Shown in pieces: positions 7,400 through 12,130 of a DNA stretch of 64,000 bases. Below the pieces are notes generated by a model that did not search any database, was not told the DNA's origin, and worked only from the letters and a program-made list of their open reading frames with translations. Position numbers and translations under genes: made by a program. This DNA is from Clostridiales bacterium (GTDB lineage: Bacteria > Bacillota > Clostridia > Christensenellales > JAISNN01), in assembly GCA_031289755.1 (NCBI GenBank), contig JAITOU010000023.1, positions 102,837-166,836 of the forward strand. Reading direction: 5' to 3'. Numbering within the stretch: the first letter of the stretch is position 1; every line of letters starts with the position of its first letter.

Positions 7400-7531
7400 A
7401 GTGAAACACCGCGTAAAGCGCAGCCGGATTTTCTACAATTCCTACATTAAATACATTTTATTCTCTATAATACCGACATTTTTATCGCTACAATACCGAC
7501 ATTTTGCTTGACGGCTCGATAAACAACACAC

Positions 7532-7618: not shown

Positions 7619-8326
7619 TTAGTCTTGTTTGTCCCGATTGTTTTGCTTGTCCTTTTTTTCCTGCTTCTTTTTGTCGATGAAGTCAAAGAGAAAGCCTTTG
7701 CGGTCTACGTCGTAGTCCTTGTAGTAGATGACTATGACAAGCTCTTCGACGAAAGCCAACAAGATTATTACGGCTAAAACCCAAATTACCCACATATACG
7801 ACCGATTAAAGATGATAAAGACGAGAGCGCAAGCCATGAGCGAGCCGCCCGTTATCTTCATCAATATGGTGTGCATAAAGTTGACCTTGCCGAATTTCTG
7901 TCTTGTGACGATACCGGCGGCGGCCTTTATGGCGATAAAGACGCCGAAGAGTATCAAGACTATCGGGAGATTGATATCGCCCTTATCGGGGGATAATACC
8001 TTTAATTCAAACGCGGCATAGATAAAGACCGCTCCGGTAAGAGCCAAATCGGCTATGCCGTCGATTTTTGAGCCGAAGTCCGTGCATATCTTAAAATGAC
8101 GGGCAATCTTGCCGTCGGCTATGTCGCTGATTATACATATGACAAAGATTGCTACAAAAATCCATCGTATGTAGTCCTGATGTATCAGCCCTATCAATAC
8201 GCCCGTGACGGAGAGAATAAGGCGCAGCCACGAAAGGAAATTCGGCAGATTGCGCAGGGTCTTACTGACTTCTTTTGTTTCGACTGTATCGATGTTGTTT
8301 TCGGTCTTGTTGTCGGTCGTTTCCAT
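7619..8326 (-). CDS. CDP-alcohol phosphatidyltransferase family protein
   Basis: Signature D-G-x2-A-R-x8-G-x3-D-x3-D is seen as DGKIARHFKICTDFGSKIDGIAD, in a multi-TM protein. I prefer the ATG at 8326 (METTDNK) over the TTG at 8350 used by the track. Confidence 0.8.
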   Translation of the reverse strand: METTDNKTENNIDTVETKEVSKTLRNLPNFLSWLRLILSVTGVLIGLIHQDYIRWIFVAIFVICIISDIADGKIARHFKICTDFGSKIDGIADLALTGAVFIYAAFELKVLSPDKGDINLPIVLILFGVFIAIKAAAGIVTRQKFGKVNFMHTILMKITGGSLMACALVFIIFNRSYMWVIWVLAVIILLAFVEELVIVIYYKDYDVDRKGFLFDFIDKKKQEKKDKQNNRDKQD

Positions 8327-8471
8327 GATAATCTTTTTCCTCGATGTCAAGCATAGCTTGATTTTTTTTGTATTGGCAATAAGCTTAGGAATCGCCGCAT
8401 AAAATTATCCGATTGTGCGCGAGCGTTTCCTTAGAAATCACCGCGTATTTGCGCGGCGTATTTCTATATAA

Positions 8472-8500
8472 ATTATAGGTCATAAATGCGCCGTTGTCAA
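8472..8500 (-). promoter_or_regulatory. Consensus sigma-A promoter of the phosphatidyltransferase gene
   Basis: The minus strand reads TTGACA-17 nt-TATAAT (plus-strand TGTCAA 8495-8500, ATTATA 8472-8477). Confidence 0.7.
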
Positions 8501-8552
8501 TCCATTTATCAAAAATTTTGTGCGGCATACGATAAATCTCTGCGTATTAGAA

Positions 8553-8690
8553 TAAAAAAGAGCCTTATATATGTCCGTTTTAGGCTCTTAGGGCAGGGGA
8601 TATAAAAACCTTTAACCGCAAGTCTGTCACATAGATTGCCGTTGACGGCGCGATAGGTTAGGGGATATAAGGCTCTTTGAGCGTAAAGCG
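8553..8690 (-). ncRNA. Candidate small RNA: structured region ending in an orphan minus-strand terminator
   Basis: The minus strand reads AAGAGCC...GGCUCUUUUUU (plus 8558-8564 / 8583-8589, with an A-run at 8554-8559). This lies upstream of the next gene's own promoter, and there is no ORF. It contains a duplicated UUAUAUCCCCU motif. The 5' end is not defined. Confidence 0.3.
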
Positions 8691-8754
8691 TATTGAAGAT
8701 TTGGCGGATTTTGTAAAAAAATAAAAAATATTTTGAGTTACCCTTTGCTAATTG

Positions 8755-8784
8755 TTGACAAGGACGGTCGGAATATGGTAATAT
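8755..8784 (+). promoter_or_regulatory. Likely feo operon promoter
   Basis: TTGACA (8755-8760), an 18-nt spacer, TG at 8776-8777, then TAATAT (8779-8784). Confidence 0.55.
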
Positions 8785-8793
8785 AATGGTACG

Positions 8794-8952
8794 GAGTTTA
8801 CAAAACTCTTAATTTAAAGACCGTATGTTCGCATATGCGAACCAAAGAGAGTTGACAAAACTCTTAAATTAAAGGTCATATGTTCGCATATGCGAACTGA
8901 ATTGAGTTTGACAAACTCTTATTTTACGGACCATGCGTTCGCATATGCGAAC
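8794..8952 (+). repeat. Three tandem 55-bp modules, each with a GAGTT..AACTC inverted repeat and the perfect palindrome GTTCGCATATGCGAAC
   Basis: Units at 8794-8842, 8849-8897 and 8904-8952. Palindromes at 8827-8842, 8882-8897 and 8937-8952, spaced exactly 55 bp apart. Confidence 0.9.
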
Positions 8953-8979
8953 TGTACCGTATCCGTCAAGGAGAAGATT

Positions 8980-9192
8980 ATGACGTTAGCATTTGCGCCG
9001 TTCGGCAGAGAAATGATTATCAAGCAAATAAACGCCGATGACAAGACCAAAAGACATCTCGAAAATCTCGGTATGGCGGTCGGCGGCAGCGTTACTTCTA
9101 TGTTTGACAGCGACGGCAACGTCGTCTTAAAAATCAAGGATTGCCGTGTCGCGCTCAATAGGGCGTTGGCAATGAAGATAGTAGTCGCTTAA
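8980..9192 (+). CDS. feoA: FeoA-family protein
   Basis: 70 aa from the ATG at 8980, after AAGGAG. The track's 8890 start reads through the repeat array. SH3-like FeoA pattern (GREMIIKQINADDKTKRHLENLGMAVG). Confidence 0.85.
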   Translation: MTLAFAPFGREMIIKQINADDKTKRHLENLGMAVGGSVTSMFDSDGNVVLKIKDCRVALNRALAMKIVVA

Positions 9193-9272: not shown

Positions 9273-9506
9273 ATGGACAAAAAACTCAACGACTTTATTC
9301 CCGAAGAAAAGGGGAGAGTCAAATCAATAACGGCGGAAGGCAAGATAAGACGCCGCCTTTTTGACATGGGCGTCACGCCCGGAGCCGAAATCGTTATGCG
9401 CAAGACCGCCCCTCTCGGCGACCCTATCGAGGTCACCGTCAGGGGTTACGAGCTGTCGCTGCGCAAGAGCGAAGCGGAAACCGTACTTATGGAGGTTGTC
9501 AAATGA
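9273..9506 (+). CDS. feoA: FeoA-family protein (second copy)
   Basis: 77 aa with the pattern RRRLFDMGVTPGAEI...GDPIEVTVRGYELSLRKSEA. Its stop overlaps the feoB start (ATGA). Confidence 0.85.
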   Translation: MDKKLNDFIPEEKGRVKSITAEGKIRRRLFDMGVTPGAEIVMRKTAPLGDPIEVTVRGYELSLRKSEAETVLMEVVK

Positions 9507-11800
9507 AATTTGCGTTAGCAGGAAATCCGAACAGCGGAAAGACGACGCTTTTTAACGCGTTGACCGGCAGCACTGCCCACGTCGGCAATTGGCCGGGCGT
9601 CACAATAGACAAAAAATCAGGCATTTACCGCAAGTCCGCCGAAAAAGCCGAAATCATCGATTTGCCGGGAATATATTCTCTTTCGCCTTATTCGCCGGAA
9701 GAGATAGTGTCGAGAAATTTTTTGCTCGGAGAAAGTCCCGATTGTATAATCAACATCGTCGACGCGACAAATCTCGAAAGAAATCTCTATCTGACGACAC
9801 AGCTCATGGAGCTGGACATTCCGATAGTAGTCGCGCTCAACATGATAGACGTCGTTGAAAAGAACAAGGACACGATAGACGCCGACGGATTGAGCAAAAT
9901 ATTAGGCGTACCCGTCGCGACTATAAGCGCGCTCAAAGGCACGGGTATCAAAGAGCTTATGGATAAGGGTATCGAAGCGGTCAAGCGCGGCAGACAAGCC
10001 GAAACCGTTCTCAAAAAGAGCGGAGCAGCCGTACTTATCTCAAAAATCGCCGCGCTTTACGGCGAAAACAAGACGAAGCACCCTTTATTTCACGCCGTCA
10101 AGCTCATAGAAGACGACGAAATCGAAAAGGAAAATTTCCCCGAGATAGCGATTAAAGCGGCGGCTTTAAAAGCCGGTACGGATACGGGAATATTTGAAGG
10201 CGATTTTGAAGGCTATATCGCCGACGCGAGATACAAATACATCTCAGCCGAATTACCGGCCGCCTTCAAAAAAGCTCCTAAGCAAGGCAGCCTGACAAAA
10301 AGCGACAAAATCGACAAGGTTCTCACTCACAAGGTTTGGGGAATACCGATATTTCTCGTCATCATGCTCGCGGTCTTTCACATCACGTTCAGCGAAAACT
10401 TTTTGTTTTTGGGCTTGTTTATACCTGAAGGAACTTTTGACCATGCAATCTTCGGCACGGACGCGATAAATTCGCCCGGTGTGATTATCTTTAATCTCAT
10501 GGATTGGGCGACCGTTTCTTTGGGAGAAGTCATAGCGTCGCTCTTTCCGGACCCGACATGGTATGCAAGCCTGATAAACGACGGCTTGCTCGGCGGCTTG
10601 TTTGCGGTGCTATCCTTTGTACCGCAGATACTCGTACTTTTTTTGTTTCTCTCGATATTAGAGGACAGCGGATATATGGCGCGCGTGGCGTTTATTATGG
10701 ACAGAGCGTTCCGCCGTTTCGGGCTTTCGGGCAAGGCGTTTATGCCGCTCGTAATGTGCTTCGGCTGCGGCGTTCCGGGAATAATGGCGACGAGAACTCT
10801 CGAAAACGAACAGGAAAGAAAGCGCACGATTTTTCTCGCTCCTTTCTTTTCGTGCGGAGCTAAGCTGCCGATATGGGCGGCATTCGCGGGCGTCTTTGCC
10901 CATTACAGGGGACTGAATGCCGAATTTACGGTTTTTTCGATGTACATACTCGGCATAGCCGTAGCGGTCATATCGTCGTTCATTTTAAAACGGACGATAA
11001 TCAAGGGCGAAACGCCGCCGTTTATTATGGAATTGCCTACATATCATTTACCGCAGGTCAAAAACACGGTCATTCACCTTTGGGAGAAGCTCAAACATTA
11101 TGTAATAAGAGCCGGCACGATTATAGCCGGAGCGGTCGTAGTCATCTGGTTTTTGACGTCGTTTAGCTTCAACATCGGCGCGGGACTCGTAGAAGACAGC
11201 GGCGACAGTATCTTGGGCGTCATTTCAAACGGTCTAAAATGGATTTTTTATCCGCTCGGCTTCGGCATGGGTGAGAACGGCTGGAAGTTTGTCGTAGCGA
11301 CTATCACGGGACTGCTCGCCAAAGAAGTTGTCGTGGCGACAATGGGTATCTTTGCCGGAATGGACGGCGACGAAGCATTAGAGACAGAAGGCTCGGAATT
11401 GGGCGATACTCCGCTCGGACTTATGATTATCAGCATAGGGGGAGTACTCGGCGGACTCGATATCGCCGTTCCGGCCATGTTTGCCTTTATGGCGTTCAAC
11501 CTTTTGAGCGTGCCTTGTATGGCGGCGGTAGCCGCCGCAAAGGCGGAATTTAAAAACAACAAATGGCTCTGGAAGGCAATAGCTTTTTGGATAATAACGG
11601 CGTATGCCGTAGCTTGCGTAATCTTTTGGCTCGGCGTTCTCTACACCTTGGCATGGTGGGTAGGATTGCTCGCAACGGTAGGCTTAGCAGTCTTGGTCGT
11701 CTACGGCGTGAGATTTGCCGGAGCTTTAATCGACAAGAAAAACGGCAAAACGGATAAAATAAACATCAAAGAGCTTTTTCTCTTCAAAAAAATAAAATAA
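9503..11800 (+). CDS. feoB: Ferrous iron transporter FeoB
   Basis: 765 aa. N-terminal G domain (GNPNSGKTTLFN, DLPG, NMID) followed by a polytopic membrane domain. Confidence 0.97.
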   Translation: MKFALAGNPNSGKTTLFNALTGSTAHVGNWPGVTIDKKSGIYRKSAEKAEIIDLPGIYSLSPYSPEEIVSRNFLLGESPDCIINIVDATNLERNLYLTTQLMELDIPIVVALNMIDVVEKNKDTIDADGLSKILGVPVATISALKGTGIKELMDKGIEAVKRGRQAETVLKKSGAAVLISKIAALYGENKTKHPLFHAVKLIEDDEIEKENFPEIAIKAAALKAGTDTGIFEGDFEGYIADARYKYISAELPAAFKKAPKQGSLTKSDKIDKVLTHKVWGIPIFLVIMLAVFHITFSENFLFLGLFIPEGTFDHAIFGTDAINSPGVIIFNLMDWATVSLGEVIASLFPDPTWYASLINDGLLGGLFAVLSFVPQILVLFLFLSILEDSGYMARVAFIMDRAFRRFGLSGKAFMPLVMCFGCGVPGIMATRTLENEQERKRTIFLAPFFSCGAKLPIWAAFAGVFAHYRGLNAEFTVFSMYILGIAVAVISSFILKRTIIKGETPPFIMELPTYHLPQVKNTVIHLWEKLKHYVIRAGTIIAGAVVVIWFLTSFSFNIGAGLVEDSGDSILGVISNGLKWIFYPLGFGMGENGWKFVVATITGLLAKEVVVATMGIFAGMDGDEALETEGSELGDTPLGLMIISIGGVLGGLDIAVPAMFAFMAFNLLSVPCMAAVAAAKAEFKNNKWLWKAIAFWIITAYAVACVIFWLGVLYTLAWWVGLLATVGLAVLVVYGVRFAGALIDKKNGKTDKINIKELFLFKKIK

Positions 11801-11863: not shown

Positions 11864-12130
11864 GTGAAACCTATCGAAACAATAACAATAATCGCGGCTA
11901 TGAAGCCTGTCGAAATAATAATATTAATCGCGGCTATCGCGCTCGTAGCTTTTTCGGTGATATACAATATACGCAAACGCAAAAAGGGCAAGGGTTGCGG
12001 CTGTGCCGACGGCGGCGATTCGGGCGGCTGTTCGGGTTGTTCGGGTTGCAGTGTTTGCGCAACGGAAGAGAGCAAGAGCATAAGCGAAGAAAGCAAAGGC
12101 GACAATGCAAGCGGAAGCGGCAACGAGTAA
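11864..12130 (+). CDS. FeoB-associated Cys-rich membrane protein
   Basis: A single TM is followed by RKRKKGKGCGCADGGDSGGCSGCSGCSVC. It lies directly downstream of feoB. GTG start after GGGGGTG; an alternative ATG is at 11900. Confidence 0.7.
   Translation: MKPIETITIIAAMKPVEIIILIAAIALVAFSVIYNIRKRKKGKGCGCADGGDSGGCSGCSGCSVCATEESKSISEESKGDNASGSGNE

Follow-up and report, generated by a model that had tools for sequence, protein, structure and literature searches.

The feoA leader

This analysis concerns the leader of a feo operon in a 64,000-nucleotide stretch of a Clostridiales genome (contig JAITOU010000023.1, positions 102,837 to 166,836; hereafter the window, with positions counted from its first letter). 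The leader (8794-8958) consists of three 55-bp units and lies between a promoter (8755-8784) and the ATG of feoA at 8980. Each unit contains a GAGTT-N5-AACTC inverted repeat followed by the 16-bp palindrome GTTCGCATATGCGAAC, and is best read, from the comparison of related loci, as one RNA-level hairpin plus one DNA-level operator. To our knowledge, metal sensing has not been described in the Christensenellales and related gut Clostridia, which are largely uncultured.

The promoter is of the sigma-70 type and faces feoA on the plus strand, with a -35 hexamer TTGACA at 8755-8760, an 18-nt spacer, TG at 8776-8777 and a -10 hexamer TAATAT at 8779-8784. A consensus scan gave 10 of 12 consensus matches plus the TG two bases 5' of the -10 hexamer, in agreement with a first-pass annotation of the sequence, which had placed a TTGACA-18-TG.TAATAT promoter here. 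Transcription would start at about 8790-8792. Hairpin element 1 (GAGTT TACAA AACTC, 8794-8808, plus strand) can form a 7-bp stem with a flanking G and T (-4.8 kcal/mol). An 18-nt spacer (8809-8826, plus strand), composed of the T/A-rich TTAATTTAAAG and then ACCGTAT, leads to operator box 1 (8827-8842, no strand), which begins ~36 nt past the presumed transcription start. Hairpin element 2 (GAGTT GACAA AACTC, 8849-8863, plus strand) reaches -7.3 kcal/mol with flanking AG/CT pairs, and box 2 (8882-8897, no strand) begins at ~+91. Hairpin element 3 (GAGTT TGACA AACTC, 8904-8918, plus strand; -3.8 kcal/mol) is followed by TTATTTT, which holds a TTNTTT motif. Box 3 (8937-8952, no strand) begins at ~+146, and 15 nt separate its end from the Shine-Dalgarno sequence. 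The T/A tracts of the three units are TTAATTTAA, TTAAATTAA and TTATTTTAC, each followed by the box.

Two repeat searches and a pattern scan bear out the earlier description of three units with a 55-bp period. Tandem Repeats Finder reported 2.9 copies of period 55 at 8794-8954 (score 210), and the second search placed the 55-nt copies at 8794, 8849 and 8904 (spacing 55 + 55), units 2 and 3 being 84% and 75% identical to unit 1. The palindrome is exact at 8827, 8882 and 8937, as had been noted, and has no further match in the window even at 3 mismatches (expected 0.31). The inverted repeat, which the first-pass annotation had given one per unit, has a 5-nt centre in all three units and occurs nowhere else in the 64 kb (expected 0.02). 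The distance from the array to the feoA ATG had been put at 28 nt, and measures 27 nt from the last palindrome. The array is not an assembly artefact, because an independent Logan assembly (SRR14710898, contig L127) agrees with it at each of the 451 nt of 8540-8990 (100% identity), a span that covers the three units.

The units had also been called exactly phased. The 55-bp period is exact, but it corresponds to 5.2 helical turns, and the sites do not lie on one face of the helix. Helical phasing was rejected on these grounds and on the 3.1 turns of the 33-bp box pairs that are common in the regulon. Similarly, the TTGACA and TTTACA hexamers pointed out in the inverted repeats are present, but both a scan and direct reading found no acceptable -10 hexamer at 16-18 nt, and internal promoters were discarded. 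The hexamers are probably incidental, because relatives lack them in the equivalent hairpins.

The palindrome as an operator

An exact scan for the 16-mer over one genome per species returned at least 120 loci. Chance alone would give ~140 matches over all phyla, and the non-Clostridia part of the list resembles this background. Among the matches listed, at least ~70 loci are from metagenome-assembled genomes of Christensenellales-type gut Clostridia, often several per genome, in clades including Borkfalkia, Gallimonas, Coproplasma, Limadaptatus and Christensenellaceae. The Clostridia boxes are intergenic and lie between TTGACA-17-TATAAT promoters and ribosome-binding sites. The genes that recur behind them are feoA/feoB, DUF3793 followed by flavodoxin, a ZIP transporter, an HMA-domain protein with GNAT and methyltransferase genes, paired ABC exporter-type proteins of 600 amino acids, a lipoprotein, and a YgbA_NO-family protein. 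With feoAB, flavodoxin, ZIP, HMA and ABC transporter genes, this is the content of a metal-uptake and metal-sparing regulon. The first-pass annotation had considered that the palindrome might occur nowhere else; it recurs 5' of metal-homeostasis genes throughout these Clostridia.

A mismatch-tolerant scan revealed that conservation is limited to the arms, GTT[C/A]GC-N4-GC[G/T]AAC, with the four central bases free. Hybrid sites such as GTTAGC....GCGAAC, which would mispair as RNA, are tolerated. In five loci (L022, L042, L072, L081 and L102), boxes lie directly 5' of the -35 hexamer and therefore cannot be part of the transcript. The free centre, the conserved arms, the hybrid sites and the boxes outside the transcript together argue for half-site recognition by a symmetric dimer on DNA, and not for an RNA hairpin. 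The palindrome is thus well supported as a double-stranded DNA operator of a metal regulon in Christensenellales-type Clostridia. The metal sensed is most likely iron.

The opposite view is that the units act purely as RNA, each with two hairpins that are bound by a protein or switch within and between units to control the stability, termination or translation of the feo mRNA. The leader folds far better than shuffled sequences (minimum free energy -63.2 kcal/mol, z = -6.4), a 6-bp hairpin of -7.2 kcal/mol is possible in each box, and the first element of the unit, GAGTT-N5-AACTC, is hairpin-like. However, such a z-score follows automatically from three identical palindromes, the arms are conserved without covariation, the mispairing hybrids and the boxes 5' of the -35 hexamer in several relatives are at odds with a function in the transcript, and no Rfam family matches. 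At gathering scores, Rfam reported one tRNA in the whole window and no cis-regulatory RNA; a permissive search of the array region gave at best idnO (22 bits against a gathering score of 100, E 0.75). A purely RNA-based function is therefore regarded as very unlikely. The first-pass annotation had offered two alternatives, a triplicated operator for a dimeric regulator or a triple double-hairpin RNA module. For the palindrome, the former is borne out by its clade-wide occurrence 5' of metal genes and the latter is not; what survives of the RNA alternative is GAGTT..AACTC, which behaves like an RNA hairpin in that its loop length varies among relatives and its place is taken elsewhere in the regulon by hairpins of unrelated sequence.

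The nearest feo relatives of the window (L121 (502), L122 and L123) carry a variant box with A/T in place of C/G at arm position 4 (GTTAGC-N4-GCTAAC). Examples are ATTAGCATAAGCTAAC in L123 and GTAAGCGCAGGCTAAC in L122, and mixed sites such as GTTAGCATATGCGAAC are found in L081. This symmetric double change could pair with changes in the recognition helix of the regulator.

Among the genes behind the box, those of the uncharacterised family DUF3793 (PF12672) are the most frequent, and they usually belong to a DUF3793-flavodoxin operon with two boxes 33 bp apart (L006, L012, L018, L019, L028, L038, L047, L072, L075, L082, L088, L105 and others). This predominance ties DUF3793 to the response to iron limitation. 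A literature search on DUF3793 returned a single paper naming the family, on an unrelated subject.

Hairpin-operator geometry across the regulon

The surroundings of the operator were compared in 132 boxes oriented by the downstream gene, or 118 after removal of near-duplicates, with positions counted from the box. The promoter-proximal flank at -17 to -9 is ~90% A/T (T 45-57%), and C is preferred at -18. The mirrored, gene-proximal flank has neither feature. An A/T block that forms a symmetric flank of the operator was rejected for the same reason, the gene-proximal flank having no such block. The T/A-rich part of spacer 1 in the window agrees with this regulon-wide block.

Hairpins end at a preferred distance from the box. 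Of the simple hairpins possible in the 70 nt upstream, the most stable one ends at -19 to -15 in 24 of 76 non-box cases, and the mirrored control has 8 of 66 (binomial p = 2e-8, Fisher p = 0.008). Folding by minimum free energy puts the 3' base of a helix at position -18 in 72% of the boxes that have no preceding box, against 32% in the mirrored control, and the helix frequency falls sharply past -18. Terminator-like hairpins, taken as those of -3 kcal/mol or lower with 4 or more T among the 8 nt that follow, number 37, of which 21 end exactly at -18 or -17, versus 2 of 21 in the mirrored control. The TTNTTT motif is found at -19 to -7 in 31 of 118 boxes and in 7 of 118 mirrored controls. Stem sequences are unrelated between loci (GGGGAG/CTCCCC, TGCCGCC/GGCGGCA, GGAAAGC/GCTTTC, GGCG/CGCC and AGAGTT/AACTCT). 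Even orthologous dtxR leaders differ, with stems GGGAACGG/CCGTTCCC in one and GGGCGAG/CTCGCCC in another.

The boxes occur in three settings. Twenty-seven begin 7-12 nt after a consensus -10 hexamer, and the first box of many relatives lies across the transcription start. Another 19 follow another box after a gap of 16-19 nt, giving the common 33-bp pairs. At least 29, or ~50 by eye, follow a hairpin and a T-tract. The three units of the window, whose hairpin 3' ends lie at -17 to -19 relative to the box, fit this regulon-wide composite of hairpin, T-tract and box. They are not canonical intrinsic terminators (at least 5 pairs with at least 3 G-C, and a T run), having 2 G-C pairs and 4-6 T in the next 8 nt. 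The equivalent hairpins of relatives are of the canonical kind, with -9 to -16 kcal/mol.

GAGTT-N5-AACTC could instead be a DNA site for a second regulator, for example a helix-turn-helix (HTH) protein paralogous to DtxR, so that each unit would hold two operators. The GAGT..ACTC arms are common to distant feo leaders (the window, L121, L091 and L026), they are invariant across the three units, and a second small HTH gene accompanies dtxR-feo in four loci. The arm spacing, however, is 5, 6, 8 or 11 nt among the window and its relatives, a range that a rigid dimer could not tolerate and that favours a hairpin. Other operons bear hairpins of unrelated sequence at the same position, and the window has no homologue of that HTH protein. 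A second DNA-binding regulator is thus quite unlikely, and the element is better explained as a hairpin.

The second small HTH protein (117-147 amino acids) is encoded between dtxR and feoA, or directly before feoA, in L043, L059, L108 and L111. Its gene has its own boxes upstream. The protein gives weak Fe_dep_repress and MarR matches and is devoid of the His/Cys metal ligands of the DtxR type, and it may be a partner or an anti-repressor. Neither this second HTH gene nor a DUF3793 gene was found in the 64-kb window.

A recurrent arrangement of another kind consists of a TetR-family gene, a co-directional G+C-rich hairpin, a TTCTTTCGG-type tract, a box and two ABC exporter-type genes. It is seen in loci including L009, L012, L014, L015, L024, L034, L044, L056, L075, L080 and L112, with 13-22 nt between the box and the start codon. 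A promoter between hairpin and box was considered for these loci and rejected, given the 13-22 nt of space and no consistent -10 or -35 hexamers. Transcription must therefore pass through the hairpin. Expression of the ABC genes seems to depend on polymerase reading through a terminator-like hairpin, with control by both TetR and a metal.

A candidate DtxR-type regulator

A gene of 120-125 codons that encodes both DtxR-family domains (PF01325 and PF02742) adjoins boxes in about ten relatives, among them L038, L043, L059, L067, L077, L093, L101 and L118 and the metagenome contigs L124 and L125. Chance would account, on an approximate estimate, for less than one co-occurrence of this kind in 70 windows of 8 kb. 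The order dtxR, promoter, box or boxes, feoA is found in six loci. In L124, whose FeoA is ~66% identical to that of the window, the 3' end of dtxR is followed by TTGACA-17-TATAAT, a box, a hairpin, a second box and feoA. The box is also found 5' of the DtxR-like gene itself in L118 and in L137/L138, the latter found by starting from the protein.

The DtxR-like family has at least 7,900 sequences in the protein collection searched and matches solved structures of MntR, DtxR and IdeR (E 1e-11 to 1e-8). Alignment to the diphtheria toxin repressor indicates that Met10, His79, Cys102, Glu105 and His106 are kept; Met10, Cys102, Glu105 and His106 make up a primary site of the Fe(II) type, and of the ancillary-site residues, only H79 is retained. 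The sulfur ligands M10 and C102 distinguish Fe(II) from Mn(II) sensors (reviewed in PMC11672702). Together with the feo and flavodoxin targets, these ligands indicate an iron-responsive repressor. Gene linkage makes a homodimeric Fe(II) repressor of the DtxR/IdeR family, of ~120 amino acids and encoded outside the window, the most probable cognate regulator. The variant half-site GTTAGC of the relatives bears a loose resemblance to the GTTAG core of the iron box.

Serial roadblocks as a proposed mechanism

The array is proposed to consist of three composite modules that combine operators of a DtxR-type metalloregulator, acting as serial roadblocks, with a possible hairpin-driven release of RNA polymerase. 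We give this joint reading a probability of about 60%. None of the boxes overlaps the promoter, and from their position a bound repressor would have to work as a roadblock against elongating polymerase. With sufficient iron, the holo-repressor would occupy the boxes and oppose elongation with three serial roadblocks, initiation not being blocked. When iron is scarce, the sites would be vacated and the strong promoter would drive feo.

In roadblock studies, the active centre of the halted polymerase lies roughly 10-15 bp 5' of the bound site. A polymerase stalled by a box-bound repressor would thus rest on the U/A tract just after the hairpin has emerged, and the weak hairpin may help to release it. 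Such release would keep trailing polymerases from queueing and displacing the repressor. Together with such a release element, three modules in series could shut off Fe(II) uptake tightly and multiplicatively at a near-consensus promoter. Modelling and experiments have indicated that trailing polymerases at strong promoters dislodge roadblocks unless the paused polymerase is quickly terminated (PMC4132739). The role of the hairpin in polymerase release is a hypothesis from geometry. A further step would be to regard hairpin, U-tract, 8-nt gap and operator as an undescribed type of attenuator, in which the pause imposed by a DNA-bound metalloregulator converts a weak hairpin and U-tract, through which polymerase would normally read, into an efficient terminator; this is possible, though on balance doubtful. 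The same tentative standing applies to the composite as a standard building block of the Clostridia metal regulon that has been stacked three times in the feo leader.

Several observations weigh against the joint reading of metal operators, roadblocks and release. The hairpins of the window are weak (-3.8 to -7.3 kcal/mol, with 2 G-C pairs) and are not flagged by a terminator scan. The same GAGT..ACTC arms are present in distant relatives (L091, 43% FeoA identity), hinting at sequence-specific recognition. Under the forward-translocation model of termination, release could be impeded, not aided, by a block farther downstream. The metal is deduced from the content of the regulon, and ZIP and HMA genes also fit zinc or another metal. 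The 64-kb window contains no DtxR-like gene, and regulator and operator are paired by association. The canonical 19-bp DtxR/IdeR iron box TTAGGTTAGSCTAACCTAA has 0 matches at up to 3 mismatches. When DtxR-like homologues were looked up starting from the protein, a box was within 2.5 kb in one of four. Finally, a TetR-family gene stands directly 5' of the boxes in 14 loci and is a candidate binder.

The last two points also favour a different assignment, namely that the palindrome is the operator of a TetR-family protein or another factor, and that the dtxR genes next to feo are coincidental or bind another site. TetR-type dimers are known to bind palindromes of ~16 bp, and in the 14 loci the TetR_N gene immediately precedes the hairpin, box and ABC genes. 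The tetR gene is nevertheless confined to the ABC pairs, whereas the box is also found 5' of feo, flavodoxin, ZIP, HMA and dtxR in loci that lack TetR. No tetR gene has a box upstream, except for a tetR inside a longer box-controlled operon. The content of the regulon is typical of a metal sensor, and the linkage of DtxR, promoter, box and feoA recurs in at least six lineages. Recognition by TetR or another factor is accordingly considered unlikely, and a DtxR-type repressor remains the preferred binder of the palindrome.

Copy number and constraint on the units

Comparison of unit copy number in orthologous feo leaders, as proposed in the first-pass annotation, revealed that the number differs and that the nearest relatives have one or two boxes. 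Close relatives of this FeoA are few, with six sequences among 5.8 billion proteins. In L121-L123 (FeoA 78-84% identical), a single box lies near the ribosome-binding site. L121 has exactly one module, comprising promoter, GGAGT-N6-ACTCT hairpin, T-tract, 18-nt gap and box, and the order of promoter, then hairpin, then box is common to L121, L091, L026 and L137. L124 has two boxes, likewise 55 bp apart. When metagenomes were scanned for pairs of exact boxes at a distance of 52-58 bp, three contigs were returned, and a second three-unit array was not found among them. Since the nearest feo relatives have one or two modules, the triplication is taken to be lineage-specific on the sequences compared.

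Hairpin-box modules have been duplicated independently in other feo leaders, namely L067 (period 50), L093/L125 (57), L101 (85) and L081 (three boxes), so that multi-module feo leaders are a recurrent solution. The array of the window is the most regular multi-module feo leader among those compared. The three units differ at none of the 26 hairpin-arm and palindrome columns but at 18 of the 29 others (Fisher p = 2.5e-7), and the arms and the palindrome appear to be under constraint in every copy. These data bear on a neutral explanation, in which a tandem duplication left a single functional module and the hairpin is a 5' stabiliser of the mRNA or a remnant of an upstream terminator. The nearest relatives do manage with one or two boxes, and the first hairpin alone sits at the 5' end. 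Yet the 26 motif positions are intact in all copies although the units have diverged by 16-25%, and independently duplicated modules recur in the leaders just listed. Neutral duplication is most improbable, and function in all three units is the preferred reading.

Comparison with known systems

The DtxR/IdeR repressors of Actinobacteria (19-bp operator TTAGGTTAGCCTAACCTAA) resemble the proposed system in protein family (PF01325 and PF02742), in acting as metal-loaded dimeric repressors with ligands of the M10/C102/E105/H106 type, in the position of palindromic operators at or just past iron-uptake promoters, and in autoregulation at some loci. They differ in that the operator here is of the form 6-4-6 (GTTCGC-N4-GCGAAC) instead of 9-1-9, the candidate regulator is only ~120 amino acids long and has no SH3-like domain, the hosts are Clostridia of low to medium GC content, and the operators lie deep in a transcribed leader and are repeated together with a hairpin.

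Control of feo by Fur boxes, as in E. coli, Bacillus and Clostridioides difficile, likewise turns off ferrous-iron uptake and flavodoxin when iron is plentiful, and it often uses several adjacent boxes. In contrast, the box here is an even-length palindrome with G+C-rich arms, and the gene to which it is linked is of the DtxR and not of the Fur type. The first-pass annotation had seen no Fur-type box in the leader; a scan of 8351-8979 agrees, with no match to a 7-1-7 box such as TGATAATNATTATCA at up to 3 mismatches. The Cheo box of LexA (CGAAC-N4-GTTCG) was also considered and rejected, as the half-sites are reversed here (GTTCG-N6-CGAAC) and the regulon has no SOS genes.

In roadblock repression, exemplified by LacI O2 and by CodY and CcpA in Bacillus subtilis, a repressor bound downstream similarly blocks the elongating polymerase, with an efficiency that depends on removal of the stalled polymerase (PMC4132739). 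Known cases need Mfd or Rho and usually involve a single site, whereas three sites are present here, each 17-18 nt after a hairpin and a U-rich tract for which a release function is proposed. Intrinsic terminators, attenuators and NusG-dependent TTNTTT pauses of Firmicutes share with these leaders a hairpin followed by a U-rich tract, and TTNTTT is enriched in that tract. Unlike in Firmicutes attenuators, there is no room for an antiterminator or a sensor RNA, because the hairpin begins 3-30 nt past the transcription start. The stems of the window are also too weak for a standard terminator scan, and the role of variable input would fall to a protein bound to the DNA a short way downstream.

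The literature searched contained no documented operator with the sequence of the palindrome, and no prior description was found among publications on DtxR regulons in Clostridia and on roadblock-plus-terminator designs. Within this literature, the sequence and layout of the operator, the minimal regulator, the clade, the repeats within the leader and the fixed composite of hairpin and operator appear to be undescribed. The locus yields an operator motif, GTT[C/A]GC-N4-GC[G/T]AAC, together with a candidate minimal regulator of the DtxR/IdeR type, and the regulon connects DUF3793 and several transporters of the ABC, HMA and ZIP types with iron limitation. The fixed distance of 17-18 nt from hairpin and T-tract to operator in many unrelated operons suggests a mechanical coupling between the repressor and transcript release. 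If true, such coupling would be a new and easily engineered route to tight, multiplicative repression.

The feo operon and its neighbourhood

All genes of the operon are on the plus strand. The Shine-Dalgarno sequence AAGGAGA (8968-8974, plus strand, by direct reading) precedes a first feoA of 70 amino acids (8980-9192; Pfam PF04023, E 9e-11), followed by a second feoA of 77 amino acids (9273-9506; PF04023, E 2e-21) and by feoB of 765 amino acids (9503-11800; Pfam FeoB_N, Gate and FeoB_C). A small Cys-rich FeoB-associated protein is encoded at 11864-12130, with a weak match to PF12669 (E 6e-4) that is under the curated cut-off, and this gene probably closes the operon. In a public gene call (Logan, P0007, 100 amino acids; 8890-9192), feoA begins at an ATG within operator box 2. 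Because the Shine-Dalgarno sequence precedes it, the ATG at 8980 is almost certainly the true start, as read from the sequence. The automatic annotation thereby hides part of the array in a region labelled as coding.

The long intergenic region 5' of the feo promoter contains a perfect 14-bp inverted repeat (8557-8678), AAAGAGCCTTATAT / ATATAAGGCTCTTT, with 94 nt between its arms. Inside it lies a 33-nt direct repeat (TAGGnnAGGGGATATAA..., at 8589 and 8654, 73% identical). Farther upstream on the minus strand, a perfect consensus promoter TTGACA-17-TATAAT (8472-8500) faces a gene for a CDP-alcohol phosphatidyltransferase (7619-8350, minus strand), whose start is ~120 nt from the promoter. Two short tandem repeats were also recorded, one of 36 nt x 2 where the small FeoB-associated gene begins (11865-11937), and one of 23 nt x 2.3 in the intergenic region between metK and the CDP-alcohol transferase gene (7453-7505).

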